In this document: piece by piece, positions 8,438-54,984 of the stretch
Numbering within the stretch: position 1 is the stretch's first letter
Layout of the letters: every line of letters starts with the position of its first letter
Source of the DNA: Gammaproteobacteria bacterium
Lineage (GTDB): Bacteria > Pseudomonadota > Gammaproteobacteria > BMS3Bbin11
Assembly: GCA_013150915.1 (NCBI GenBank)
Contig: JAADJE010000012.1
Span: forward strand, 27,820 to 91,819
Reading direction: 5' to 3'
DNA length: 64,000 bases
The notes under the pieces: generated by a model
The model's database searches: none
Seen by the model: the letters and a program-made list of their open reading frames with translations, nothing else
Told to the model about the DNA's origin: nothing
Program-made: the position numbers and the translations under genes

Positions 8438-8505
8438 CACTGCTGTCCCGTTAACCTGATCTTATTTTTCTGTCGTTGTTGTAGTGCTTGGGATGCAGGG
8501 AACCC
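8438..8505. repeat. Partial copy (one terminal inverted repeat plus ~50 bp) of MITE-like element family B; the complete copy is at 54655-54844
   Basis: GCACTGCTGTCCCGTTAACCTGATCTTATTTTCTGTCGTTGTTGTAGTGCTTGGGATGCAGGGAACCC is nearly identical to the reverse complement of 54771-54840. Confidence 0.8.
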
Positions 8506-8741
8506 ATTTATACCTGGAACTTTAGACTTGGAACTTGGAACTATGCCCCTTTTGTGCTATAACCGCGCCTCTTTTCAGGGGTTCTGAATTACGGACGGCC
8601 TGATTTCGAAATACGCTGTCATTTGATGACTTAACTAAAATGATCGTGGGAACACTAGCAGGGCCCGGGTGTTTGAGAGACTGTTTGTCTGTCAAACTGG
8701 CATTGCAACCCATGTGAATGTAACCCGAACGGAGATAGAAG

Positions 8742-9722
8742 ATGTCTAAGATTTCGCTTCGCGATATGCTGGAAGCTGGTGTTCATTTCGGCCACCGTAC
8801 ACGTTTCTGGTACCCCAAAATGCGCCCTTATATCTTTGGTGAGCGTAACCAGATCCATATCATTAATCTGGAAAAAACCCTGCCCCTGTTTGAGGAAGCC
8901 TGTAATTTTCTTGGCAAGATTGCGGCTAACGGTGGTAACGTCCTGTTCGTTGGCACCAAGCGCCAGGCAAGTAAAGTTATTCGTGAAGCAGCGATACGTT
9001 CTGCTTCACCCTATGTGGATCACCGCTGGTTGGGCGGTATGCTGACCAATTTCAAGACCGTACGTAATTCAATCAAACGCCTGAAGGAGCTGGATGAACT
9101 GTTTGAAAGTGGCCAGGCAGATAAGCTGATCAAAAAAGAACGGTTACGTGTCGAGCGTGAACGCACCAAGCTGGAGCGTTCCCTGTCCGGTATTAAAAAT
9201 ATGAATGGTCTGCCAGATGCACTCTTCATCATCGATGTGAAATATGAGTATATCGCCATAGCAGAAGCTAAAAAGCTTGGCATTCCTGTGGTTGCCGTGG
9301 TTGACACCAACTGTAAGCCAGAAGGTATCGATTACATTATTCCTGGCAATGATGATGCGATTCGCTCTATTCGTCTCTATGCTGATACGATTGCCGATGC
9401 CATTATTGAAGGACGCCATTCTGTTGCAACTGCCCCAGTGGTTGCAGCCTCTGATGACTATGTCGAAATGGATGATGCTAAGGCTGAGGCACTGATAGAG
9501 AAAGCGAAACCCTCCAGCAGTACGGTTAGCGAAGCAAAGAAAGCAGATGTGAGCAAAGCTGATTCTGAAGAAGTCACTGCGGATGCAGTGCCTGTTTCGG
9601 AGGAAGCAGCGGCAGTTAAAAAAGCGGTCAAGAAAAAGGTTGTGAAAAAGAAAGCGGTGAAGAAAAAGCCTGTAAAAAAGAAGGCTGTCAAAAAGGTGGC
9701 AGCGAGTAAGGACGACGCGTAA
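8742..9722 (+). CDS. rpsB: 30S ribosomal protein S2 with a lysine-rich C-terminal extension
   Basis: The N-terminal ~240 aa are canonical S2. Followed by tsf. The last ~85 aa are Ala/Val/Lys repeats ([23 protein letters not shown]). Confidence 0.92.
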
Positions 9723-12054: not shown

Positions 12055-12172
12055 CGCACCTGATCGCCTTGTTTGGTCCTTTTTCTCTTTAGGGTACCCT
12101 TACTTCTTTAAGTATCTTACCGGCTGGGCTAAACTGTTGCTTTTCCCTTTCCAGCATTCCTGATTCGGAATA

Positions 12173-22703: not shown

Positions 22704-23283
22704 AATATCCTGCTTATTCGTTGCAGGGGTTGATGAGGTTGGCCGTGGTCCGCTGGCAGGGCCTGTTGTGACAGCAGCGGTTATACTTGATCGCAGGCAT
22801 GTTATAGACGGCCTGGCTGATTCGAAGCGTTTGAGTGAAAAAAGACGTCGGCAACTGGATTTGCTGATCAGAGAGTATGCGGCGAGCTTCTCGATCGCAC
22901 AGGCTGATGTCCACGAGATTGATCAGATGAATATTCTGCAGGCCACCATGCTGGCGATGCAACGAGCGGTTGCAGGACTGACAATAAGACCTGATAAGGT
23001 GTTGGTGGATGGTAACCGCCTGCCTGTACTCCCCTGTGCAGCGGAGGCGATTATTGGGGGTGATGGTCTGGTCGCTGAGATTTCAGCGGCTTCAATTATC
23101 GCTAAAGTTTATCGCGACCGTATGATGAAAGGCTTGCATCATCGGTATCCACAATATGGTTTTGATAGCAATAAGGGCTATCCCACCCGCCTGCACCGTG
23201 AAGCATTACAAAAATATGGTGTGACGCCAATTCACCGTCGAAGTTTTGCACCGGTAAAACAGGTGATTGAAAATCGTGCCTAA
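22681..23283 (+). CDS. rnhB: Ribonuclease HII
   Basis: 200 aa with the [15 protein letters not shown] active-site motif. Confidence 0.92.
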
Positions 23284-26200
23284 GAGATCCTTTATCCATC
23301 TTCATCTGCACTCAGAGTATTCTCTGGTAGACAGTATTCTCCGCATTAACGACATTATAGATGTCTCTACAGAGCAGAATATGCCGGCTGTTGCAGTGAC
23401 CGATTTATCCAATGTTTTTTCTGTGGTCAAATTCTATAAAGCGGCTGCGATTGCTGGCATCAAGCCAATTCTGGGTTCCGATGTATGGATAGAACGTGCG
23501 GAACAACCGGGAAAACCCTTCCGTCTGGTTCTGCTGTGCCAGGATAAGAAAGGCTATCGTAACCTGACTCATATGTTGTCAGAGGCCTTTCGCCATGGCC
23601 AGCACCTGGGTGGCCATGCCTGTATTTCAAAGCAAGAACTGGCCGCGCATGGTGAGGGTCTGATAGCGCTGTCTGCCGCCACCCAGGGAGAGATAGGAAA
23701 TGCCCTGCTGCATGGCTCCAATGAACAGCTTGAACAATTGGTGGATGAATATCTACAGATATTTTCTGACCGTTTTTATCTTGAACTACAGCGTACCGGA
23801 AGGCCTGGTGATGAAGAGCATATCGACAAGGCTATGGCCCTGGCAATACGTCGTTCCCTACCTGTGGTGGCAACAAATGATGTCCGTTTCAGAATGGAGA
23901 ATGACTTTGAAATTCATGATATACGCGTTTGTATACAGGACAGTCGGGTATTGAATGATCCACGTCGACCTAAACTCTACAGTCGGCAGCAGTATTTTCG
24001 CTCAACGGAGGAAATGGTGGAACTGTTCGCTGATATACCCGAGGCGATAGAAAATACTTACCACATTGCCATGCGTTGTAATTGCCGGTTGACACTAGGT
24101 AAAAACTTTATGCCTGAGTTTCCTGTTACCGAAGGGCAGGATGTCAATCAGCTGCTCATTGATGACTCAAATAACGGGTTGAAAAAAATATTGAGGAAAA
24201 TTCCACAAGATGTCGACCGAGGCCTCTATCAGGAGCGTCTGGATATGGAATTGGGTGTCATCACCGGCATGGGGTTTCCCGGTTATTTTCTGATCGTTGC
24301 CGATTTTATCCGCTGGGCCAAAGATCACGATATACCCGTGGGACCGGGTCGTGGTTCCGGGGCTGGATCACTGGTGGCCTATTGCCTGGGCATTACTGAA
24401 CTCGATCCCATTGAGTATGGCCTGTTGTTCGAGCGCTTTTTAAACCCGGAACGTGTCTCGATGCCAGATTTCGATATCGATTTCTGTATGGATAAACGTG
24501 ATCGGGTGATTGAGTACGTTACCCAACGTTATGGTTCTGACAAGGTCTCACAGATTATCACCTACGGCACGATGGCTGCACGTGCGGTGGTACGGGATGT
24601 CGGACGGGTCATGGATGTTGGTTTTGGCTTTGTTGACCAGCTGGCCAAGATGATTCCTGGGGAACCGGGGATGACACTGGCGAGGGCGATTGAGTCAGAA
24701 AAAGATCTGCGCGAAAAAATAGAACAGGATGATGATGTACGTGAACTGATCAGTCATGCTCAATCTCTGGAAGGTATGGCCAGAAATGCCGGTAAGCATG
24801 CCGGTGGTGTGGTCATTGCACCCACTGCACTGACAGATTTTACTGCCCTGTATTGTGAGCAGGGCGTCACCCAGATGGTGACTCACCTGGATATGAAAGA
24901 TATAGAAGCTGTTGGTCTGGTGAAGTTTGATTTTCTCGGTTTGCGAACCCTGACCGTTATCGATAATACATTGAAAACGGTCAACCGTTTCCGCGAACAA
25001 AATGCCCAGACACCGATGACATTGGAAGATATTGATCTCAGTGATAAAAAGACTTTTGAGTTGATTCGCGCCTGCGGGACAACGGCTATTTTCCAGCTCG
25101 AATCCAGCGGTATGAAAGATGTTATTAAGAAACTGCAGCCAGATAACTTCGACGATATGATCGCGGTGGTTGCCCTGTACCGCCCGGGGCCATTGGGCTC
25201 GGGTATGGTTGAGACCTTCATTGATCGAAAACGTGGGCGTCAAAAAATTATCTATCTACATCCGCTGCTGGAAGAAATACTCAAACCCACCTACGGTGTG
25301 ATTCTTTACCAGGAACAGGTAATGCAGATTGCCCAGGTGCTTGCTTCGTTCACATTAGGTGCAGCGGATATACTGCGCTGGGCGATGGGCAAGAAGATCG
25401 TAGAAGAAATGGCGAAACAGCGCGAGAACTTTCGGATTGGTGCTGAAAAAAACGGTATCGATGCCAGGCAGGCAGACGGTATCTTCGATTTGATGGAGGA
25501 ATTTGCCAAGTACGGTTTCAATAAATCGCATTCCGCCGCCTACGCACTGGTTTCATTCCAGACGGCCTGGTTCAAGGCGCATTACCCGGCGATGTTCCTC
25601 GCCGCAACGCTATCGGTGGATATGGAAAAGACAGATAAAGTCGTTACATTAATCGCCGAATGTCGGGATATGAACCTGACGGTACTGCCACCGGATGTTA
25701 ACAGCTCCGGTTTTTCTTTCGAGGCAAGTTCAGAAGATACTATCATATACGGTCTCGGTGCGATCAAGGGTATTGGACAGGCGGCGATAGAAGAAATTAC
25801 CCGTGCGCGGAAAGAAAAAGGTCAGTTCAGTAGCCTGTATGAATTTTGCCGTACGCTAGATTTGAAGAAAGTGAACCAGCGTACTTTAGAGACGCTGATC
25901 GGTGCAGGTGCGCTGGATAAAATGGGTGTACACCGTGCTGCCCTGATGGCAAACCTGGCGAATGCCATGTCCTTGTCGGGGCAGGAACTCAGAAATCGTG
26001 CGGCTGGACAGGATGACTTATTTGGCAGCAGTGATGCGCTGGATTGCGATATTGACTGGATAGAAGTGGCAGAATATTCAGAGGATGAGCGCCTTAAACG
26101 AGAAAAAAAGCACCTTGGACTGTACCTGACAGGGCATCCGATGAATCAATATCAAAAGGAGCTGGGTAATTTTATCAGTTGCAGTTTGAGTGAGGTTGAG

Positions 26201-26734
26201 TCGGCAGTGGGTAAACAGGTCACCATAGCGGGTCTGATTATTGCTATGCGTACACGCAATACACGTCGAGGTCGAATGGCAATTTTGATCCTGGATGACC
26301 AGTCTGCCCGGTTAGAAATTCCCATATACTCAGAACTCTATGAGAGCAATAAACAATTGCTGCAGGAAGACAGACTGGTCATCATCAGCGGCAAGGCCGC
26401 TTATGATGATTATTCCAGTAGTACTCGGGTCACTGCAGAGCGTATTCATGACATGGACTCAGCCCGTGAGACCTTTTCTACTGACCTGCGTATCACCTTG
26501 AAAAAGAAAGTAGAAGATGCCGTCGAAAGCCTGCAGGTCACACTGCAGCCGGTAAAAGGCGGTTCTACACCCGTCATTATTGATTATATGAATGAAGAGG
26601 CCAGGGCAAGCATTCATTTGCCGCGTGAATGGTGTGTACACCCTTCAGCAAAGCTGCTGGATGAACTAAATAAACTCCCTGTCGTCAGCAAGGCTGTCTG
26701 TGAATACAATGCTGCCGGGGCGCGTATTAATTAA
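23267..26734 (+). CDS. dnaE: DNA polymerase III alpha subunit
   Basis: 1155 aa. N-terminal PHP domain ([11 protein letters not shown]), polymerase core and an OB-fold C-terminus. Confidence 0.95.
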
Positions 26735-26737
26735 TGG

Positions 26738-26760
26738 AGGGCACTTAAAGGTGCCCTTTA
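26738..26760 (+). terminator. Hairpin AGGGCAC-TTAAAG-GTGCCCT followed by TTTA, directly after the dnaE stop. Doubles as a minimal fused copy of the family-A terminal inverted repeats.
   Basis: A perfect 7-bp stem with a 6-nt loop and a T-rich tail. The stem arms match the terminal repeats AAGGGCACC / GGTGCCCTT of the 38122-38286 element. Confidence 0.55.
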
Positions 26761-26821
26761 TCCTTAGATCAGTATAGCGTTATACTTTCACCCGACTAGA
26801 TTATTACTGCTGGAACCCTAG

Positions 26822-27784
26822 ATGAACCTCAACTTTCTCGATTTCGAGCAACCTATCGCTGAACTTGAAGCCAAAATAGACGAATTGCGTCATGTTGGCA
26901 TCACCAGCGATGTCAGTCTAACCGATGAAGTGGCCCGTCTACACAGTAAGAGCATCAAGCTGACGGAATCGATATTTTCCTCATTAACTTCGTGGCAGGT
27001 GTCGCAGCTTGCCCGCCATCCCCAGCGCCCCTACACACTTGAATATATCGACAGGATATTTACCGGTTTTCAGGAATTGCGTGGTGATCGTATGTTTGCT
27101 GATGATTCTGCGATCGTCGGTGGTCTGGCGCGTCTGGAAGGTCGTCCAGTGATGGTGATCGGCCATCAGAAAGGCCGTGACACAAAGGAGAAGGTATACC
27201 GTAACTTTGGTATGCCACGGCCTGAGGGATACCGCAAAGCGATGAGATTGATGGAGATGGCAGAGCGTTTCCACCTGCCTCTGCTGACATTTATAGATAC
27301 CCCCGGTGCCTACCCGGGCGTTGATGCAGAAAAACGAGGCCAGAGCGAAGCCATTGCGCGTAATTTGTTTGTTATGTCTGATTTGAAAACGCCTATCATT
27401 TCGACGGTGATTGGTGAAGGGGGGTCGGGTGGCGCGTTGGCCATCGGTGTTTGTGACCGACTTCTGATGTTTCAATATTCAACCTACTCGGTAATTTCAC
27501 CGGAGGGTTGTTCAACTATCCTGTGGAAGAGTGCCGATAATGCGGCGGATGCCGCTGAGGTGATGGGATTGACGGCACAACGTCTGCGGGATCTGGGCCT
27601 GATAGATGAGATCATCGAGGAGCCATTGGGTGGTGCGCACCGTGATGTTGATCTGGCTGCAGAAAATCTACGCAAGGCGTTGCTGAAAAACCTCGATACC
27701 CTGGGTGCGATGACGATACCTGAGTTACAGGAGAAACGTTATCACCGTTTACGCCAGTACGGTGTCGATAATTTCCAGGAATAG
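26822..27784 (+). CDS. accA: Acetyl-CoA carboxylase carboxyltransferase alpha subunit
   Basis: 320 aa. Conserved AccA sequence. Follows dnaE as in many gammaproteobacteria. Confidence 0.93.
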
Positions 27785-27796
27785 CTCGGATGTTTC

Positions 27797-29194
27797 ATGG
27801 GACTGTTCGACCGGGTCGTGCGACAAGTGTCTACGTCTGCTAATTTCTCTGCCGCCAGTCTCTGGCAGGTTCTGCATGATCAGCTTTCTGTAGAAAAGGA
27901 CAGTGCAGTCTATGTTGCCTTTAGCGGTGGTCTGGACTCGCACGTGCTGTTGCACGCACTTTCTGGTCTGGCATCTGATTACCCTTTTTCGCTGAACGCG
28001 ATTCATATTAATCATTCACTACAGCCACAATCGCCCGCCTGGGCAGAGCACTGTCAGGAGGTGTGTGGTGCCCTGTCAGTGGCGCTTACTATCAAGACAC
28101 TTAGCCTGGATCAGAAAAAGGGTGAAAGCCTTGAGGCGCTGGCAAGGGATGCGCGCTATACCGCATTGGCTGAATGCCTGCCTGTAGGGGGGATATGCAT
28201 GACCGCCCAGCACAGAAACGACCAGAGTGAAACCTTATTGCTGCAGCTACTGCGTGGTGCGGGAGTGCATGGGCTGGCGGCAATGCCCGCCAGTAAAGTG
28301 TTTTTTATGGGCCAACTGTTGAGGCCGCTGCTGGCTTTTACTCGACAGGATCTGGTGGATTATGCGCAAAGACACAAGCTTGTCTGGGTAGAAGACCCGA
28401 GCAATCAGGACAATAGATTCGATAGAAACTTTCTGCGCAATGAGGTATTGCCCAATTTGCGTGAGCGCTGGCCGGGGATGGACAAAAGCCTGTCACGCAG
28501 TGCACGTCATGCGGCCTCAGCGGCGACGATGCTGGATGACATGGCCAGGTCAGATTTACTTTATTGCAAGGCCAGCGGTAACCATTTTCTCCCCCCCTGT
28601 ATTACCTGTTTGAATGCTCATTTACTGGCTGAACTGCCGGTTTTGCACCGTGTGAATGCCCTGCGCTACTGGGTGCGAATGAATGGCTTGTCGGTGCCCA
28701 GCGATGAGCAGATGCAAAGTGTGATTCGTTTACTTGAGGCATCATCAGGCAAAGGCAGTGTGAAATGGTCTGCAGCTGTACTCAGGCTGGATAACAATAT
28801 ACTGTGGTTATGTGATAACTCTGATGCCGTTCAAACGACCAACGAGTTTCTTGACTGGGTTCTCCCGGCATCCCTACAATTTCGAAATATGGTCCTGCGG
28901 GTCACAAAGGTGAAGGGAGAGGGGCTGGCCAAATCACGGCTCATCGGTTTTACCTTGAAGGTGTCTTTTCGTCAGGGAAGTGAGCTATGCCGTATGCCTG
29001 GCGATCACGGCAGCAAACCACTAAAGACCCTGTTCCAGGATCTTTCCATACCCGCCTGGATGCGTGATAACGTACCGCTGGTCTTTCTTGACGATGAACT
29101 GCTTGCTGTCTCATCACTCTGGAGCAATCCTCATTACTTACCCGGCCCGGATGAAGAGGGTTATGTCATCTCGGTTCACTATAAAGAGGCCTAA
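27797..29194 (+). CDS. tilS: tRNA(Ile)-lysidine synthetase
   Basis: 465 aa with the N-terminal PP-loop SGGLDS motif. Follows accA. Confidence 0.88.
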   Translation: MGLFDRVVRQVSTSANFSAASLWQVLHDQLSVEKDSAVYVAFSGGLDSHVLLHALSGLASDYPFSLNAIHINHSLQPQSPAWAEHCQEVCGALSVALTIKTLSLDQKKGESLEALARDARYTALAECLPVGGICMTAQHRNDQSETLLLQLLRGAGVHGLAAMPASKVFFMGQLLRPLLAFTRQDLVDYAQRHKLVWVEDPSNQDNRFDRNFLRNEVLPNLRERWPGMDKSLSRSARHAASAATMLDDMARSDLLYCKASGNHFLPPCITCLNAHLLAELPVLHRVNALRYWVRMNGLSVPSDEQMQSVIRLLEASSGKGSVKWSAAVLRLDNNILWLCDNSDAVQTTNEFLDWVLPASLQFRNMVLRVTKVKGEGLAKSRLIGFTLKVSFRQGSELCRMPGDHGSKPLKTLFQDLSIPAWMRDNVPLVFLDDELLAVSSLWSNPHYLPGPDEEGYVISVHYKEA

Positions 29195-36351: not shown

Positions 36352-38123
36352 TGAAAAATAACATAGAAAGAAGGCGCTTCGATTGCCTTGTTATTGGCGC
36401 AGGTGGCGCGGGGCTACGTGCTGCGTTGCAATTGGTACAGGCTGACCTGCATGTTGCGGTTGTATCAAAAGTTTTCCCCACCCGCTCCCATACCGTTGCC
36501 GCACAGGGCGGTATGAATGCTGCTTTGGGTAACCTTACACCGGACAACTGGCACTGGCATATGTATGATACGGTTAAAGGCGGTGATTTTCTGGGTGATC
36601 AGGATGCTATTGAGTATATGTGTCGTGCCGCATCGCGACTGGTAATTGAGCTCGAACATTTCGGTGTTCCCTTTACACGGCTTGAAAATGGACGCATCTA
36701 CCAGCGTCCGTTTGGCGGACAAAGCCAGAACTATGGCGGCGAACAGGCCGCACGCACCTGTGCTGCAGCAGACCGCACCGGTCATGCCATTCTGCAATCC
36801 CTCTATCAACAGAATTTACGTTCACGCACCCATTTCTTCGATGAATATTTTGCAACGGATTTACTGGTCTCTGAGGAGGGGGTAACGCAGGGTGTGATGG
36901 TGATTGATATAGAGTCCGGCCAGCCATTAATTATTGAAGCTAAAACGATTTTGTTAGCAACGGGGGGGTCGGCACGAATTTTCCGCACCAGCACCAATGC
37001 AATGATCAATACTGGCGATGGCATGGCGATGGCACTGCGTGCCGGCTTGCCGATTCAAGACATGGAGTTTGTACAATTTCATCCAACTGGCATAGCGGGT
37101 CTGGGTATGCTGATTTCTGAAGCGACACGGGGCGAGGGTGGTTATTTAATCAATAAGGATGGTGAGCGTTTCATGGAGCGATATGCCCCGCATGCACTTG
37201 ACCTGGCCTCACGCGATGTTGTTTCCCGAGCCATTGCGACTGAAATCCGCGAGGGCAGGGGCTGTGGAGAAAATGCCGATTATGTGCTCCTGCAATTACA
37301 CCATCTTGATCCGGATATTGTGAAAAGCAGGTTACCGGGTATCCGGGGTATGTCTATCCGTTTTACCGGTATCGACCCGGTTGATGCCCCGATTCCGGTT
37401 TTTCCGACAGCACATTACACGATGGGCGGTATACCGACCAACAGAAAGGGGCAGGTCGTCGTGCCATTGCACCATGCACCGGAAGAGCCACAGCAGGGCC
37501 TTTATGCAATTGGTGAATGCGCCTGCGTTTCAGTGCATGGTGCAAACCGTCTGGGGGGGAATTCCTTGCTCGATATAGTCGTGTTCGGCCGAGCGGCAGG
37601 GAATCACATCATCGATTTTCTAGCGGATAACCGCTTTCATACGCCGCTTAGCGAGGCATCTATAGAGCAGGCAATGGACCATATTCAACGTTGGGATAAA
37701 AAAGGGGAAGGTGAATCTGTCGCCGACATAACAAAACAGATGCGTGTGATGATGGAACAGTATTGTGGTGTCTTTCGTACACAGGATGTACTTGATGAAG
37801 GGGTTGAAAAAGGACGTGAACTGCTTGCCCGCCTGGCAGATGTTCGACTGGGTGATCAGAGTAAGGTGTTCAATACCGCGCGAATTGAGGCCTTTGAACT
37901 TGAGAATCAGCTGGAAGTGGCGATGGCAACCCTGCTATCCGCTGCGGCACGGACAGAAAGTCGGGGCGCACATTCACGTCTGGATTTTCCCGATCGTGAT
38001 GATCGAGAGTGGATGAAACATACCCTGTATTACAATCGTGATGGCGGTGTGCTGGATTACAAACCGGTACGTACGCAACCCCTAACTGTCGATTCCTTTC
38101 CACCGGTAGAGAGGGTCTATTAA
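36351..38123 (+). CDS. sdhA: Succinate dehydrogenase flavoprotein subunit
   Basis: The FAD-binding N-terminus (FDCLVIGAGGAG) follows ATG at 36351; the upstream in-frame codons belong to the sdhD overlap. The covalent-FAD His region (SHTVAAQGG) is present. Confidence 0.93.
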   Translation: MKNNIERRRFDCLVIGAGGAGLRAALQLVQADLHVAVVSKVFPTRSHTVAAQGGMNAALGNLTPDNWHWHMYDTVKGGDFLGDQDAIEYMCRAASRLVIELEHFGVPFTRLENGRIYQRPFGGQSQNYGGEQAARTCAAADRTGHAILQSLYQQNLRSRTHFFDEYFATDLLVSEEGVTQGVMVIDIESGQPLIIEAKTILLATGGSARIFRTSTNAMINTGDGMAMALRAGLPIQDMEFVQFHPTGIAGLGMLISEATRGEGGYLINKDGERFMERYAPHALDLASRDVVSRAIATEIREGRGCGENADYVLLQLHHLDPDIVKSRLPGIRGMSIRFTGIDPVDAPIPVFPTAHYTMGGIPTNRKGQVVVPLHHAPEEPQQGLYAIGECACVSVHGANRLGGNSLLDIVVFGRAAGNHIIDFLADNRFHTPLSEASIEQAMDHIQRWDKKGEGESVADITKQMRVMMEQYCGVFRTQDVLDEGVEKGRELLARLADVRLGDQSKVFNTARIEAFELENQLEVAMATLLSAAARTESRGAHSRLDFPDRDDREWMKHTLYYNRDGGVLDYKPVRTQPLTVDSFPPVERVY

Positions 38124-38286
38124 GGGCACCTTTATTAATCCATGAATATTCATCTTGCATCCCAAATCGTCCATCTCTGCGTTAAGCATCTTCGCAATAG
38201 CCATGCTATTGCGTGCGATCCTTGTCTTGATATGAACAATTGTGGAATACAATCTGAGCTATCCAGAATTGATAGAGGTGCCCTTT
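38122..38286. repeat. MITE-like dispersed element family A, copy 1 (~165 bp, terminal inverted repeats AAGGGCACCT / AGGTGCCCTT), filling the whole sdhA-sdhB intergenic space
   Basis: Highly similar to 49889-50048 and partly to 41525-41705. The left terminal repeat overlaps the sdhA stop codon. The right terminal repeat ends 2 nt before the sdhB ATG. Confidence 0.8.
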
Positions 38287-38288
38287 AA

Positions 38289-38993
38289 ATGATTCGCTTC
38301 TCCATCTACCGCTTCAACCCGGACAAGGACAGCAAACCTTATATGCAGGACTACCAACTGGATGAGTCAAGGCTTGAAGGTCGAAAAATGCTTCTTGATG
38401 CTATCCTGCTGTTGAAAGAACAGGATGAAAGCCTGTCATTTCGCCGTTCCTGTCGTGAAGGTGTTTGTGGCTCGGATGCAATGAATATTAACGGTAGCAA
38501 TGGACTGGCCTGTATTACACCATTAAGTTCGCTGAAGCAGCCTATCAACTTAAACCCACTGCCAGGCATGCCGGTGATTCGTGACCTGATTGTTGATATG
38601 GAGTCCTTTTACCGCCAGTACCGCACTATAAAGCCCTGGTTAATGAACGATGAACCGGAGCCGGAAATCGAGCGTTTACAATCGGATGAAGAGAGGAAGA
38701 AGCTGGATGGACTTTATGAGTGCATCCTCTGTGGGTGCTGTTCAACGGCATGTCCATCTTTCTGGTGGAATCCTGGCAAATACCTGGGGCCTGCCGCTCT
38801 ACTGCAGTCTTACCGGTTTCTGGTGGATTCCCGTGACAAGGCAACCAACGAACGCCTTGATGAACTGGAGGATCCTTTTCGTTTGTTCCGTTGTCACAGC
38901 ATTATGAATTGTGTTGAGGTCTGTCCCCGTGATTTGAATCCTGCGCTGGCCATTCATAACATACGTAAAATGCTGCTAAAACGGGCAACCTAG
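38289..38993 (+). CDS. sdhB: Succinate dehydrogenase iron-sulfur subunit
   Basis: 234 aa with 2Fe-2S (CREGVCGSDAMNING), 4Fe-4S and 3Fe-4S (CILCGCCSTACPS ... CHSIMNCVEVCP) cysteine clusters. Confidence 0.93.
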   Translation: MIRFSIYRFNPDKDSKPYMQDYQLDESRLEGRKMLLDAILLLKEQDESLSFRRSCREGVCGSDAMNINGSNGLACITPLSSLKQPINLNPLPGMPVIRDLIVDMESFYRQYRTIKPWLMNDEPEPEIERLQSDEERKKLDGLYECILCGCCSTACPSFWWNPGKYLGPAALLQSYRFLVDSRDKATNERLDELEDPFRLFRCHSIMNCVEVCPRDLNPALAIHNIRKMLLKRAT

Positions 38994-39833: not shown

Positions 39834-41477
39834 TTAGGGTTTAAGGGCACCCTTAAAATCAACAGGGATCAGCACGGTGTTTATCCGATCTAATTCTCGG
39901 TTGGTCTCCGGATAATCCCGTGTAAAATGAAGCCCGCGACTTTCTTTGCGTTGTTGTGCACTACGTATCGTTAACTCGGCAATAACAGCCAGGTTGCGTA
40001 ACTCGAGCAGGTTGTTACCTACCTTGAAATGGCTGTAAAACTCCTCAATTTCATCTTTCAGTAGTTCGATGCGGTTCTGAGCACGCTGCATGCGTTTGTT
40101 GGTTCTGACGATACCGACGTAGTCCCACATAAAGCGACGCAGCTCATCCCAGTTATGTGACACTACCACCTGTTCATCTGGATCGGTGACCTGGCTTTCA
40201 TCCCATTGAGGCAGTTCGGGAATGGGGGCAGGAGGTTGCTTAAGGCTCTTTAATATCGAACGACTGGCAGACTGAGAGAAGACCAGACATTCAAGCAATG
40301 AGTTACTCGCGAGGCGGTTTGCACCGTGAAGGCCAGTACAGGTGCATTCACCGATGGCATAGAGATCCTCGACATCTGTTCTACCATCTAGATCAGTGAT
40401 CACCCCACCGCAGGTATAGTGTGCCGCCGGTACCACCGGAATAGGGCTGGTGGTGATGTCCATACCGAACTTCAGGCAGCGTGCATAGATGGTTGGAAAA
40501 TGTTCGATGATGAAGTCGTGATGGCGATGGCTGATATCAAGATAGACGGAGTCCAGGCCGCCTTTCTTCATTTCATGGTCAATTGCGCGTGCGACGATAT
40601 CGCGGGGAGCCATTTCACCTCTTTTATCGTGGTACTTCATGAAGTGCGTTCCATCCGGCAGTAATAAACGGGCGCCTTCTCCACGTAGGGCTTCTGAGAT
40701 CAGAAATGATTTCGCCTCCGGGTGGTAAAGACAGGTTGGGTGAAACTGTACAAACTCCATATTGGCAACACGGCAGCCAGCACGCCAGGCCATGGCGATT
40801 CCGTCGCCTGTCGAGGTGTCAGGGTTGCTGGTGTAAAGATATACTTTAGATGCACCCCCTGTTGCCAGTACTGTATTAGCGGCACTGACAGACATGATTT
40901 CACCATTTTTCTGGTCTAGAATATAGGCACCGAGGCAGCGGTTCTTCGATCCGTCCAGTTTGAAGCTGGTGATCAAATCAATGGCGATAACGTGTTCGAA
41001 CAGGTGTACGTTGGGGTGATTGCGTGTTTTCTGCTCCAGCGTGGTCTCTATGGCCTTGCCTGTGGCATCTGCTGCGTGGATGACACGTCGGTGACTGTGT
41101 CCACCCTCACGGGTCAAATGGTAATGCCTGCCATCCATGTCGAGGCTAAAACCAACCCCCTGATCTATGAGCCATTGAATATTTTCAGGGCCATGTTTGA
41201 TGACGTATTCAACGCAATCCGGGTCGCAAAGTCCAGCTCCGGCATCTAGCGTGTCCTGTTTATGGGACTGTATAGAATCATTGTTACCCAGCACAGCGGC
41301 GACGCCACCTTGAGCGTAATAGCTGGATCCTTCATGAAGCTGACCTTTTGAGATAACTGCAACAGAGGCCGTGTCAGCAAGCCGCAAAGCCAGACCGAGA
41401 CCGGCCAGACCACTGCCAATTACCAGGACATCAAAATGCTTGTTTGCCATTGCACCACCACTTACGCCTTTATCCAT
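39834..41477 (-). CDS. nadB: L-aspartate oxidase
   Basis: 547 aa with the FAD-binding N-terminus ([13 protein letters not shown]). Divergent from rpoE as in E. coli and Pseudomonas. Confidence 0.92.
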
Positions 41478-41524: not shown

Positions 41525-41705
41525 GTAGGTGCACCGCCCCAGTGTGATTGTTTCAGTGAGGAACAGGGGCGACTGGCCCATGAAACAGAATCACACCGAA
41601 ATCGATGCGGCTACAGCGTATCAAGTCTCTGTGATACCCTTAGCTTAATATGACAGGTTCTTGAATCACAATCTGACATATCCAGAATCAAAGAGCTACC
41701 CATTG
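41525..41705. repeat. Divergent copy 3 of MITE-like element family A, in the nadB-rpoE intergenic region
   Basis: The 3' half (CTTAATATGACAGGTTCTTGAATCACAATCTGACATATCCAGAATCAAAGAGCTACCC) aligns closely with the 3' halves of the copies at 38229-38286 and 49991-50048. The 5' part is more divergent. Confidence 0.6.
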
Positions 41706-44649: not shown

Positions 44650-46074
44650 ATGAAAAAGTTATTAATGCTACCCGCCCTGTTCCTGTTCATTTCATTTGCG
44701 ACAGTGACAGCTAATGCAAATGCATTACCCGATTTTGTACACCTGGTTGAAGAACAGGGTAAGGCAGTGGTTAATATAAGTACCAAGCAAAAATCAAAGT
44801 CTTTACAATCGGGGTCGGGAGAGTTACGTCTACCCGATCTGCCGCAAGACAGTCCTTTCTATGAATTCTTTGAGAAATTCTTTGGTCAGTTACCGCAGTC
44901 TCCACAGGGAACATACCCACATCCCAGTATTAGATCCCTCGGCTCAGGCTTTATTATTTCTGCAGATGGTTATGTGTTGACTTCTGCACATGTGGTAGAC
45001 AATGCTGATGAAATTGTTGTCCGCATGACAGACAGACGGGAAATGCTGGCAAAAGTAATCGGTACTGATAAACGCAGTGACGTTGCTTTGTTGAAAATTG
45101 AGGCAAAAAATTTGCCCTATTTGAAACCGGGTAAACCAGATGAACTAAAGGTTGGAGAATGGGTATTGGCAATCGGCTCACCCTTTGGTTTTGAGAATAC
45201 CGCGACGGCGGGTATTGTTTCTGCCAAGGGTCGAAGCCTGCCAAACGAAAATTATATTCCTTTCATTCAAACGGATGTGGCGATTAACCCGGGTAATTCG
45301 GGTGGTCCACTGTTCAATATGGATGGTGAGGTTGTAGGGATCAACGCCCAGATATACAGCCGTTCAGGCGGTTATATGGGGCTGGCGTTTTCTGTTCCTA
45401 TCGATTTAGCAATACAGGTTGCCGATCAACTGCGTGCTGGTGGGAAAGTTAAGCGTGGCTGGCTTGGCGTGACCATCCAGGATGTAAATCGTGATCTGGC
45501 TGAAGCCTTTGATATGGACAAACCTTTTGGTGCGCTGGTTTCATCTGTTCTTCCAGATAGTCCAGCATCAAAATCAGATTTACAGGTGCAGGATGTGATA
45601 GTTGAATACAACGGTAAACCCGTCAGACTTTCTTCAGATCTGCCGTTTTATGTTGGGCGCAGCAAGGTTGGGACAACTGCAACTTTAAAAGTTTTACGTG
45701 CTGGAAAATCACGAAATGTGAAAATAAGCATTGGTCAGCTCCCAGAATCAGACGTAGCTACTTTGAATACAAAAAAGCATAATTTGAAAAAAGACACACC
45801 CGATCTGCTCGGCATCTATGTGCGTGATTTATCCCGGGAGGAGAAAAAATTACTGGATCTGGATTATGGCGTTCTTGTCGTCCAGCTTAAAGCAAATTCA
45901 GCGGCGGCGAATGCAGGGATCAGAAAGGGTGATGTGCTTCTTTTGCTAAATAAGAAAAAGGTCAGGAATGCTGAGACGTACAAGGCCATTGCTGGATCAT
46001 TGAAGAAAGGCCGGCCTGCTGCAGTATTGGTAAGACGAGGCAATGGATCACAGTTTCTTGTGCTAAAACCATAG
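44650..46074 (+). CDS. degP: Periplasmic serine endoprotease DegP/MucD (HtrA family, two PDZ domains)
   Basis: Signal peptide starts at MKKLLMLPALFLF (ATG 44650). Catalytic triad motifs (TSAHVV, D, GNSGGPL). Two PDZ domains. Confidence 0.88.
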   Translation: MKKLLMLPALFLFISFATVTANANALPDFVHLVEEQGKAVVNISTKQKSKSLQSGSGELRLPDLPQDSPFYEFFEKFFGQLPQSPQGTYPHPSIRSLGSGFIISADGYVLTSAHVVDNADEIVVRMTDRREMLAKVIGTDKRSDVALLKIEAKNLPYLKPGKPDELKVGEWVLAIGSPFGFENTATAGIVSAKGRSLPNENYIPFIQTDVAINPGNSGGPLFNMDGEVVGINAQIYSRSGGYMGLAFSVPIDLAIQVADQLRAGGKVKRGWLGVTIQDVNRDLAEAFDMDKPFGALVSSVLPDSPASKSDLQVQDVIVEYNGKPVRLSSDLPFYVGRSKVGTTATLKVLRAGKSRNVKISIGQLPESDVATLNTKKHNLKKDTPDLLGIYVRDLSREEKKLLDLDYGVLVVQLKANSAAANAGIRKGDVLLLLNKKKVRNAETYKAIAGSLKKGRPAAVLVRRGNGSQFLVLKP

Positions 46075-46155
46075 GGTACCTCTATTAATTATTCTCCCGA
46101 GGGGAATCACTTTCCTCTCGGTGCCTTCAATAGCGTATAATTTGCGCTTTAATTT

Positions 46156-49205: not shown

Positions 49206-49911
49206 TGAAAAGATACAGAGGCTTCAGAAGTCACTGGACTATAATTTCAATTCCAGGCCAGAGTTGTTAATACGTGCATTAACACATAGAAGCCACGGCT
49301 CGGATAACTACGAAAGACTGGAATTCCTTGGAGACAGTCTACTGGGTTTTATCATTGCGGATACGATTTGTGAAAGGTTTCCCGATGCAGATGAGGGGCA
49401 ATTGACCCGATTGCGTGCGAACCTGGTCAGACAGGAAACTCTGGCAGAACTTGGTAGAGAATTAGATCTGGGGAGGTATCTTATTCTCGGTCCGGGTGCA
49501 CTGAAAAGCGGTGATCAGGGGCGAGACTCCGTTCTTTCTGATGTCGTAGAGGCAATTATCGGTGTCATCTATCTCGATGGAGGAATGCTGCCCTGTCGAC
49601 AATTTGTCACCCGGATATTTGCCGACAGACTTGCTTTGTGTGAACCGCATAAAATCCTTAAAGACCCGAAGACCCGCCTGCAGGAGTTTTTACAGCAACA
49701 ATCACAGAAACTCCCCGAATACACCATTCTCGATATAAGCGGTCCTCCACACAAGCAGTCATTCAAAGTGCAGTGTCTGATAGCAGAAGGCAAGCAAGTA
49801 TTCTGTGGGCGAGGTGCTAGCCGTCGTAAGGCTGAGCAGGATTCTGCTGAAAAGGCCTTACGGGCCATTTCTAAACAATCAGGGCTTTCGGGCACCTCTG
49901 TTAATCCATGA
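49183..49911 (+). CDS. rnc: Ribonuclease III
   Basis: RNase III signature (ERLEFLGDS) and a C-terminal dsRBD. GTG start overlapping the previous gene. The last ~7 codons are contributed by the terminal repeat of MITE A copy 2. Confidence 0.9.
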   Translation: MSKSHLGNEKIQRLQKSLDYNFNSRPELLIRALTHRSHGSDNYERLEFLGDSLLGFIIADTICERFPDADEGQLTRLRANLVRQETLAELGRELDLGRYLILGPGALKSGDQGRDSVLSDVVEAIIGVIYLDGGMLPCRQFVTRIFADRLALCEPHKILKDPKTRLQEFLQQQSQKLPEYTILDISGPPHKQSFKVQCLIAEGKQVFCGRGASRRKAEQDSAEKALRAISKQSGLSGTSVNP

Positions 49912-50048
49912 ATATTCAACTTCCATCCCAAATCGTCTCTCTCTGCGTTAAGAATCTTCGCAATAGCTAGCTATTACGTACGATCCTTGCCTTGATATGT
50001 ACAATTTGGAATGCAATCTGACCTATCCAGAATTAATAGAGGTGCCCC
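49889..50048. repeat. MITE-like dispersed element family A, copy 2, occupying the rnc-era intergenic space and ending immediately before the era ATG
   Basis: ~85% identical to 38122-38286 over ~160 bp. Terminal repeats GGGCACCTCT ... AGAGGTGCCC. Confidence 0.8.
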
Positions 50049-50049
50049 T

Positions 50050-50949
50050 ATGACAAAAGCTTTCCGCGCAGGTTTTATTGCCATACTGGGGCGACCAAAT
50101 GTAGGCAAGTCGACATTATTGAATCGCATCATAGGCAAGAAAATCAGCATTACATCGCCTAAGCCTCAGACCACACGGCATCGTTTACTGGGTATCTGTA
50201 CAACAGAAGAACATCAAATGGTTTTTGTGGATACGCCCGGGGTACATCTTGGTAGCAAACGCTATATCAACCAGATCATGAATAAGACCGCCGCGAATGC
50301 TCTGATAGGGGTTGATGTTACGCTACTGATGATCACATCTGAAGGGTGGAAGGAAGAGGACCATCATGCCCTGAAGTTGGCACAGCAGGAAAAAATGAAT
50401 CTGATAGTGTTGATTAACAAAATTGATAAATTGAAAAATAAGAATCAACTCCTGCCATTGATTGAATTCACATCACAACTACATGAATTTAAAGAGATTA
50501 TCCCCATTTCCTCTGCCTATGGAACTAATGTTCAATCATTAATGGATGTTTTACCTGAGTATCTTCCGGAAAGTCCTCTCCTGTTTCCTGAAGGGCAGAC
50601 GACAGATAAAGGTGCTCAATTTATCATTTCAGAAACTATAAGGGAGAAACTTTTTCGCCAACTGCGCGATGAAATTCCTTATACACTTGCGGTAGAAATC
50701 CAGCAGTTAAAGATGACGGAGTCACTGATACGGGCAGAGACTATCATCTGGGTAGAAAAAGAGAGTCAAAAAGGCATAATCATTGGTAAGAAAGGTGAAA
50801 AATTACGTACTGTCGGAACGCATGCCAGGGAGGAACTGGAGTCCTATTTTGAACGAAAAGTATTTCTACAGCTTTGGGTGAAAGTGAGAGAAAACTGGTC
50901 TGATGATGCAGTAATGTTACGCTCAATTGGATATATAGAGGAAGAATGA
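50050..50949 (+). CDS. era: GTPase Era
   Basis: N-terminus AGFIAILGRPNVGKSTLLN (G1 motif) beginning at ATG 50050. C-terminal KH domain. Confidence 0.92.
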   Translation: MTKAFRAGFIAILGRPNVGKSTLLNRIIGKKISITSPKPQTTRHRLLGICTTEEHQMVFVDTPGVHLGSKRYINQIMNKTAANALIGVDVTLLMITSEGWKEEDHHALKLAQQEKMNLIVLINKIDKLKNKNQLLPLIEFTSQLHEFKEIIPISSAYGTNVQSLMDVLPEYLPESPLLFPEGQTTDKGAQFIISETIREKLFRQLRDEIPYTLAVEIQQLKMTESLIRAETIIWVEKESQKGIIIGKKGEKLRTVGTHAREELESYFERKVFLQLWVKVRENWSDDAVMLRSIGYIEEE

Positions 50950-51683: not shown

Positions 51684-51697
51684 GTCAAAATCATGGA

Positions 51698-51804
51698 GAC
51701 CAAAGACCAAAGACCAAAGACCAAAGACCAAAGACCAAAGACCAAAGACCAAAGACCAAAGACCAAAGACACCAAAGACCAAAGACCAAAGACCAAAGAC
51801 CAAA
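51698..51804. repeat. Heptanucleotide tandem repeat (GACCAAA)x15; the eleventh unit carries a 2-nt insertion (GACACCAAA)
   Basis: Direct reading of the sequence: ten perfect units, one 9-nt variant, then four perfect units, between recO and pdxJ. Confidence 0.95.
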
Positions 51805-51830
51805 GGCTAAATAACGTAAACCGTAAACCC

Positions 51831-54654: not shown

Positions 54655-54844
54655 CTGAGACACTGCTGTCCCGTTAACGCCACATCGTCATGCCGGGCTT
54701 GACCCCCGGTATCCAGTAAGTCGTTGAAACCGCTGGATTCCGGCCTGCGCCGGAATGACAACCCCATTGGGTTCCCTGCATCCCAAGCACTACGACAACG
54801 ACAGCAAAATAAGATCAGGTTAACGGGACAGCCGTGACACTGAG
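54655..54844. repeat. Complete MITE-like element family B (~190 bp) with ~24-bp terminal inverted repeats (CTGAGACACTGCTGTCCCGTTAAC ... GTTAACGGGACAGCCGTGACACTGAG) and an internal palindrome
   Basis: Terminal inverted repeats read directly from the sequence. Internal perfect palindrome ATTCCGGCCTGCGCCGGAAT at 54737-54756. Partial copy at 8438-8505. Confidence 0.8.
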
Positions 54845-54984
54845 ATTATATCTATTCTCGCAGATATTAAGGGCCGCTCTATTAATTCATGAATAATAGC
54901 GGTGTTTTTTAGGGTGAAATTATAATTAATCGTCCCCATATCTCTGCTAATATTAGATTCTAAACACTGTACAGGAGTATAACT

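Follow-up and report, generated by a model that had tools for sequence, protein, structure and literature searches.

A stable hairpin just downstream of dnaE in an uncultured gammaproteobacterium is probably a dead, collapsed relic of a palindromic MITE of ~158 nt, to judge by comparison of its sequence with copies of the MITE and with related loci. The hairpin, AGGGCAC-TTAAAG-GTGCCCT, was present as an earlier note on this DNA had described it, 3 nt beyond the dnaE stop and 65 nt before the accA start, in the window (the whole 64,000-nt stretch of DNA analysed). Below, we describe the MITE family, its shortened descendants, and the evidence for and against descent of the dnaE hairpin from it. 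The features of the window are collected in Table 1.

Table 1. Features of the window discussed in the text, with positions counted from its first letter.
Feature	Position	Strand	Related sequence or remark
dnaE-distal hairpin AGGGCAC-TTAAAG-GTGCCCT, putative collapsed MITE (TIR tips only)	26738-26757	+	L175 counterpart GGGCACCTTAAAGGCGCCC in same place
Extended RNA stem-loop at dnaE hairpin	26734-26761	+	12 pairs including G.U, UAAA loop, dG -17.2 kcal/mol, z -3.4
dnaE ORF, stop TAA at 26732-26734	23267-26734	+	Pfam families of L175 orthologue
accA-promoter-like block CTTTATCC-N18-TATACT	26756-26787	+	abuts hairpin right arm; putative promoter function
accA	26822-27784	+	
Full MITE copy 1, sdhA stop to sdhB start, flanks TTAA and TTTA	38124-38283	+	L077/L082 orthologous copy, 100% identical
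Full MITE copy 2, rnc-era spacer; era ATG 2 nt past right end	49890-50047	+	
nadB 3'-end palindrome TTAA-GGGTGCCC-TTAA (coding strand)	39841-39856	-	8-nt MITE relic and target duplication; encodes part of ...F-K-G-A-L-K-P*
nadB (L-aspartate oxidase), ends ...VDFKGALKP*	39834-41477	-	
Collapsed MITE: TTAA, GGGCCGCTCTATTAAT (left TIR, 14/16), TCATG, AATAATAGCGGTG (right-TIR-like), then T6	54867-54910	+	
52-nt element with same TIR (GGGTACCTCTATTAAT ... GGTGCC), spacer before lepA	46074-46125	+	orthologous TIR match in L077 1686-1701
Degenerate right half of family-A-like element, nadB-rpoE spacer	41631-41700	+	nhmmer E about 1e-3

A mobile MITE family

Family A is a typical mobile prokaryotic MITE with a 4-bp, AT-rich (TTAA-type) target duplication. 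First, its copies (157-174 nt, typically ~158 nt, and 93% identical on average) were bounded by 16-nt terminal repeats (TIRs), GGGCACCTCTATTAAT and ATTAATAGAGGTGCCC, whose pairing was kept with four compensated positions. Second, a scan of the collection with an internal 18-mer of family A located about 19 full copies at different loci in six related MAGs of uncultured gammaproteobacteria (CSMAG_729, CSMAG_1741, CSMAG_2624, BMS9Abin25, Arenicellales DBRS4.bin12, and MAG246), besides the two in the 64-kb window; two of the six MAGs are close relatives of the window organism (AccA identity 95-97%). Third, TTAA stood on both sides of 8 of 18 copies, with TAAA, TATA, or TCAA at others. Finally, a related 159-nt element was filled in L077 and empty in L080-L083, the insert of 163 nt being the 159-nt element plus the 4 nt of a CTAA duplication. 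The TIRs, the dispersed copies, the target duplication, and this filled/empty polymorphism of a related element bear out the view, already held in the earlier note, that family A is a real MITE family.

The element is non-coding, with stop codons within 12-58 nt in all inward frames, and folded as one long hairpin (dG -54.5, z -5.5). Shorter elements with different interiors were bounded by this TIR as well (L061, 129 nt; L077, about 85 nt; the window, 52 nt). Across about 1 Mb of loci, we found no transposase gene with these TIRs and no TIR pair spanning a transposase-sized interval. A search of the literature for the TIR strings returned unrelated primer matches only, and Rfam at its gathering threshold reported one tRNA only in the window.

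Three further observations concern the structure of these elements. The related 159-nt element with the CTAA duplication represents a second MITE family (GGAACCTCTGATCAATTCATGAA...CCAGAATTAATCAGAGGTTCC), filled at positions 7765-7927 of L077 and empty at 7786-7834 of L080. One family-A copy (L015, 1227-1400) carried a triplicated ATTAATCC in the left TIR region and was 174 nt long, not 158. The tips of the TIRs covaried, as in GGACACC..GGTGTCC and GGTCACC..GGTGACC (alignment A5 columns 3/160, 5/158, and 10/153; L021, L061, L070, and L045), a pattern not expected of ends that served solely as transposase-binding sites independent of each other.

Shortened copies and relics in the window

The palindrome in the last nadB codons, which reads TTAAGGGCACCCTTAA and had been related to family A in the earlier note, was confirmed, and comparison of orthologues shows that it is a MITE relic and that NadB ends in repeat-derived residues. 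The nearest NadB proteins (92% identical; from BMS3Bbin11 and several metagenomes) end ...PVNFKGASINS(G)*, and more distant ones stop soon after ...PDNF/Y with unrelated tails. In L077-L083, nadB runs at TTTAA directly into a MITE end, GGGCGCCTCTATTAATTC..., which encodes KGASINS(G)*, and in L077 this end extends through 82 nt of the family-A right half (nhmmer E 5e-18). In the window, that TTTAA is followed by GGGTGCCC-TTAA-ACCCTAA, that is, only about 8 nt of element and a second TTAA. An ancestral MITE inserted into the TTAA of the nadB F-K codons and took the place of the native tail, and its later decay at this site differed between the two lineages. The same comparison upholds the earlier proposal that the motif has been reused as C-terminal codons, with the relic supplying the end of NadB.

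Transposase excision, rather than replication slippage, could also leave such a palindrome, and the nadB relic (possibly the dnaE one as well) would then be a footprint of the TTAA-GGGCACCC-TTAA type. The nadB layout is classical for a footprint, with TTAA, 8 nt of element termini, and TTAA adding 12 nt in frame, but the 8-mer could equally have come from slippage between the near-palindromic terminal hexamers GGCACC and GGTGCC, and the alignment also allows it to derive from the left TIR alone by small deletions. A general class of 8-nt footprints, GGG[YR]CCC, was tried and rejected, as these octamers were not enriched (three GGGTACCC in 281 kb against about 3.5 expected), and the dnaE hairpin has TTAA inside rather than outside. 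We consider excision quite improbable as the source of these relics.

A site in the frr-uppS spacer (12088-12103, TTTAGGGTACCCTTAC) has the layout of the nadB relic, TTTA-GGGTACCC-TTAC, with a GGGTACC tip variant; it is a weak relic candidate and may be due to chance, the octamer not being enriched overall.

The stretch at 54871-54903, singled out earlier for its likeness to the left end of family A, does resemble it: a left TIR (14 of 16 positions matched) is preceded by TTAA and followed, within 40 nt, by a right-TIR-like stretch. The fragment lies in a divergent spacer upstream of an erpA/iscA-like gene. A right-TIR 13-mer with two edits within 40 nt had P of about 0.0015 in 4000 random 40-nt windows, and the 6 matches among those 4000 were taken to fall on the two real MITE copies. 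By its sequence, this is a collapsed MITE copy that has kept both TIRs and lost almost its whole interior. The relics of the family in the window vary in size: 8 nt (nadB 3' end), 34 nt (54871), and 52 nt (46074). In the nadB-rpoE spacer, where the window has a degenerate right half, L077 has a ~85-nt MITE with the same TIR.

The dnaE hairpin and the ends of family A

The earlier note held that the dnaE hairpin is exactly the two terminal repeats of family A fused. The tips are indeed present in the right orientation, but "exactly" goes too far for the window, where GGGCAC ... AGGTGCCC matches the TIRs over 6-8 nt per arm. The counterpart in L175, GGGCACCTT ... TAAAGGCGCCC, strengthens the case with 9-10 matching nt per arm. 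In that form, GGGCACCTT-A-AAGGCGCCC, nt 1-9 of one TIR (in the sdh-copy variant GGGCACCTTTA...) are joined head to head to nt 10-1 of the other, and its GGGCGCC tip variant also occurs at the nadB-site MITE copies. From the L175 hairpin to that of the window, one lost C and a C>T change turn a stem with an A.C mismatch into a perfect 7-bp stem. Longer stretches are also shared with the sdh copy: TAAAGGTGCCCTT of the hairpin recurs at the left end of that copy and AGGTGCCCTTTA at its right junction (12-13-mers). The right flank of the hairpin, TTTA, is that of the sdh copy as well; the left flank, TGGA, is not TTAA-like. The whole window contains 38 distinct perfect hairpins with stems of at least 7 bp, and the chance that one of them fits a 6-7-nt TIR tip is roughly 0.005-0.05. 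A 16-nt TIR-like match over the last dnaE codons, ATTAATGGAGGGCACC, was set aside as noise; it has four mismatches, and two more four-mismatch matches lie in the same locus.

Three features favour an origin of the hairpin from a MITE, at the level of DNA. Its complementarity runs into the centre of the palindrome, which would not be expected from selection for an RNA stem; its 12-13-mers are common to both junctions of the sdh copy; and the same genome makes symmetric relics, at nadB and at 54871. The probable course of events can be outlined as follows. A full MITE copy would once have stood between the dnaE stop and the accA promoter, a slipped-strand deletion stimulated by the palindrome would have removed about 140 internal nt and left both tips symmetrically, and single-base changes (one C lost and C>T in the window) would afterwards have produced the perfect 7-bp stem. 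Internal deletion was seen directly in one MITE, the sdh copy of L082, which is without 31 nt between GATG repeats. The nadB palindrome would represent the same collapse carried further, and the remainder of the TIRs at dnaE is presumably too short for the relic to move. Against this origin stand the need for one large deletion and 1-2 single-base changes, the lack of a TTAA-like duplicate at the left side, where TGGA is found, and the fact that the dnaE hairpin is the sole such mini-element in 353 kb of related DNA.

The dnaE-accA spacer in related lineages

We compared the dnaE-accA spacer in 10 lineages with AccA identities of 91-99% and looked for a full MITE there by a metagenome scan, protein searches, and comparison of relatives' contigs. 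No full MITE was found at the dnaE-accA site in any of these 10 lineages, an outcome that had been named beforehand as refuting the earlier suggestion of an excision footprint at dnaE.

The block CTTTATCC-N18-TATACT was conserved in all of the relatives, and the sequence upstream of it varied. From the dnaE stop to this block, the window reads TGGAGGGCACTTAAAGGTGCC, L175/L176 (AccA 99.1%) TGGAGGGCACCTTAAAGGCGCC, L084 (96%) TTATGCTGCC, L178 (BMS9Abin25) TTAAGCTACC, L177 (DBRS4.bin12) GTGCTACC, and L164 (94%) GGGCTACC; four outgroups (91-93%) have unrelated spacers of about 30 to about 190 nt. The L175/L176 hairpin stands in the context TGGA GGGCACCTTAAAGGCGCCC TTTATCC. Four sister lineages have TTA[A/T]G-CT[A/G]CCC-TTTATCC, without the left arm of the hairpin, a sequence that resembles the hairpin loop plus right arm and also the ...GCAATAC-TTTATCC of the outgroups. 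The window and L175 differ from the sisters essentially by one 11-12-nt indel (a gain or a loss) at the left arm.

The palindrome could instead have arisen locally and de novo. A fold-back or template-switch error in replication would have made an inverted copy of ~10 nt of the native AAGGTGCCCT, which lies immediately before the accA -35; in that case the short form (TGA TTAAGCTACCC) would be ancestral, the left arm a fold-back copy of the native right arm, and the likeness to the MITE a coincidence. The sisters already have TTAAG-CTACCC or TTATG-CTGCCC before TTTATCC, CTGCCC is one substitution from GTGCCC, and the difference to be explained is essentially a single insertion. Because the sister TTAAG-CTACCC resembles the loop and right arm, the right arm may be native and only the 11-12-nt left arm new. 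The palindrome is complementary to its very centre, as fold-back products are, and no relative carries a full MITE at the site. However, a fold-back needs a native 7-mer with at most one mismatch from a TIR tip, in the right orientation and followed by TTTA as at the sdh copy, a coincidence that we estimated at roughly 1-5% when allowing for the 38 hairpins of the window. Moreover, both arms, not merely the inserted one, differ from the sister sequence at clustered positions, and the genome demonstrably produces symmetric MITE relics elsewhere. On balance, fold-back seems rather unlikely, and collapse of a MITE remains the probable origin. Simple insertion routes to it, in which a MITE entered the sister-type TGA TTAA GCTACCC TTTA and a deletion followed, were tried and rejected, as none of them yields the left flank TGGA without extra substitutions.

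Recurrence of the terminal motif

The earlier note also regarded the motif as a genome-wide palindromic unit of REP/MITE type. The MITE part of this description stands, the motif being the tip of a real MITE family; the REP part does not, as the recurrent entity is the 158-nt MITE. The motif was above random expectation when checked in the window: AGGGCACC occurred 6 times against 1.86 expected (none of 100 shuffles reached 6), and the 11-mer T[TA][TA]A+GGG[CT][AG]CC, a target-like tetramer plus tip, occurred 6 times against 0.25 expected. Two of the AGGGCACC sites, at 28067 and 29994, lie in tilS and pyrG coding sequence and are background, and the remaining four mark both ends of one MITE copy, the dnaE hairpin, and the nadB palindrome. 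Of the six 11-mers, five belong to the sdh MITE ends, the nadB palindrome, or the dnaE hairpin, and one lies at 12088. Tip-to-tip pairs in 353 kb of related DNA measured 157-174 nt, 129 nt, or, in the single dnaE case, 19 nt, and when 281-353 kb of such DNA was searched for GGGCAC...GTGCCC and for degenerate pairs of tips, only the dnaE locus came up.

A dispersed REP/BIME-like palindromic unit kept genome-wide by a RAYT-type enzyme could produce recurrence of this kind, and the impression of recurrence and the excess of the 8-mer speak for it, though nothing else does. Outside coding sequence, all occurrences are ends of MITEs or their relics, the mini-palindrome is unique in 353 kb, and the unit that repeats has TIRs and target duplications, unlike REPs. 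Such a system is extremely improbable here.

Function of the dnaE hairpin

Whatever its origin, the hairpin could be kept as an intrinsic terminator or insulator of dnaE, or as a 3'-end stabiliser before the accA promoter. Its predicted stem is stable in the window and in L175 (dG -16.1), it lies just past the dnaE stop and directly upstream of the conserved promoter-like block, and the two changes from L175 to the window abolish the A.C mismatch. L084 can fold a different, weaker hairpin that ends on the same GCCC-UUUAUCC. Nevertheless, the tail is UUUAUCCUU with the 7-bp stem and becomes the U-poor AUCCUUAG if the G.U pairs form, and the hairpin was not called by a terminator scan. Terminator-like sites were not enriched in this region of the genome (15 found against 18 expected). 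Only two sequences, the window and L175/L176, carry the hairpin; L177 and L178 are without it (z +1.2 and +1.3), and L164 has only a 5-bp hairpin. Maintenance for such a function is therefore doubtful, and the earlier idea that the hairpin serves as a transcription terminator finds no backing in the U-poor tail, the scan, or L177 and L178. The U-poor tail and the lack of conservation leave a required role as terminator or insulator unsupported. The best reading is of a probably neutral relic that, in dnaE transcripts, would fold as a stable 3' stem-loop (-17 kcal/mol) and may incidentally stabilise the message to a modest degree or terminate it weakly.

Copies inside operons

The full copies drew attention in their own right. 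The 206 nt at 38112-38317, which comprise the whole sdh copy and a few flanking nt, were 100% identical to their counterpart at about 9314-9519 on the reverse strand of L077, as against 81-93% identity for the adjoining sdhA and sdhB DNA. The sdh copy is one inherited insertion, since all 10 of its departures from the family consensus are common to the orthologue. In a second orthologous pair (L054, 2439-2596, and L017, 4569-4726), the MITE was 97.5% identical against 85.5-88.4% for the flanks, and two of the four differences amounted to an inversion of the central loop. Selection on structured RNA, local recombination, and conversion are candidate causes of this high conservation.

Of 17 independent copies, 7 have the start of a long ORF 2-7 nt past the right end, and none has one past the other end. 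These are the two copies of the window (50037-50052 and 38273-38291) and those in L021, L045, L047, L050, and L070. The right TIR (..TAATAGAGGTGCCC) places GAGGTG 7-12 nt before the ATG, in the Shine-Dalgarno position, and so looks like a donated Shine-Dalgarno sequence. At the left end of the same seven copies, the stop of the upstream gene falls in TTAA (n=2), inside the left TIR (n=3), or 7 or 17 nt upstream (n=2). At 49890-49911, the left TIR of MITE copy 2 supplies the final six codons of rnc (RNase III) together with its stop (...SGLS-GTSVNP*). The high conservation and these gene boundaries suggest that operon-internal copies may be under selection.

Family A might even be a domesticated intercistronic cassette, in which inward stops, structured RNA, and an outward GAGGTG acting as a ribosome-binding site would be held by purifying selection in sdhA-sdhB and rnc-era, with its collapsed relics, the dnaE hairpin among them, kept as stem-loops at the ends of transcripts. 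We offer this idea tentatively, as a speculation with the odds against it.

Two other repeats of the window are noted here. At 51687-51816, about 17 tandem AGACCAA heptamers with one interruption lie at or just before the pdxJ start; the tract, which in frame reads as KDQRPKT repeats, may be phase-variable (a contingency tract) or form an N-terminal extension. Upstream of two different genes lies a 69-nt repeat with 96% identity between 8438-8506 (- strand) and 54768-54836 (+ strand), and GTTAACGGGACAGC in inverted orientation (about 54660-54680) flanks the copy at 54768-54836. This repeat could be a further small mobile element or a leader common to both genes.

Comparison with known repeats

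ERIC/IRU elements of Enterobacteriaceae and Vibrio are imperfect palindromes of about 127-160 nt, found in transcribed spacers, often in operons, and unusually conserved between species. Family A shares their size, palindromy, operon spacers, and high conservation, but its sequence is unrelated, and it has a clear 4-bp TTAA-type duplication and a TIR with an outward GAGGTG 2-7 nt before starts. Correia/NEMIS elements of Neisseria are TIR-bounded MITEs of 100-160 nt, co-transcribed with neighbouring genes whose expression they alter, and occur in full-length and internally deleted forms. Their target duplication is TA, and their 26-nt TIRs contain motifs for IHF and promoters, none of which was seen here. 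Family A is likewise a TIR-bounded MITE in which full-length copies stand alongside internally deleted ones. Insertion of the IS5 group of the IS5 family generates 4-bp duplications at YTAR-like targets. The duplications seen here (TTAA, CTAA, TAAA, TATA, and TCAA) are IS5-like, as a lead only, and no transposase with these TIRs was found in about 1 Mb.

Like other prokaryotic MITEs (reviewed in PMC10969869; PMC3184786), family A is short, non-coding, and intergenic, with 16-nt TIRs, a target duplication, many copies, filled/empty polymorphism, and a long hairpin. It differs from the known ones in a TIR sequence not met in the searchable literature and in the lack of a cognate transposase in the roughly 1 Mb of loci. 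MITEs may form Rho-independent terminators (PMC10969869), and in-frame fusions of MITEs with ORFs have been described, as they have for Rickettsia palindromic elements (RPE) and similar repeats (PMC3184786). As with RPE, repeat-derived nucleotides are translated here, in the NadB tail and the RNase III tail GTSVNP*; unlike with RPE, they amount to only the last 4-8 codons and the stop at the gene end, with no insertion inside a domain. The dnaE mini-palindrome resembles the units of REP/BIME and REPIN-RAYT systems (PMC3116915) in being small, GC-rich, placed beside a gene end, and vertically persistent over the long term. REPs, however, number in the hundreds as 20-40-nt units, solo or paired, and carry neither TIRs nor target duplications, whereas the dnaE palindrome is a singleton that would come from a 158-nt element.

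Implications

Most likely, the dnaE and nadB palindromes are worn-down MITE leftovers, ordinary biology rather than a new REP-like system. Family A itself adds a new family to a well-known kind of element and is common in this lineage of uncultured marine gammaproteobacteria. The window appears to preserve a series of stages in its decay, 158 > 52 > 34 > 19 > 8 nt, in which a palindromic MITE collapses while both tips stay. For annotation in this lineage, short GC-rich hairpins and odd C-terminal tails are best taken for MITE debris rather than for designed terminators or REP units, and the final residues of NadB and RNase III are repeat-encoded. The most promising leads are the conservation of the MITE and the possible use of its TIR as a ribosome-binding site. 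If these side observations hold, a mobile repeat would have been co-opted as operon punctuation in an uncultured hydrothermal/sediment gammaproteobacterium.
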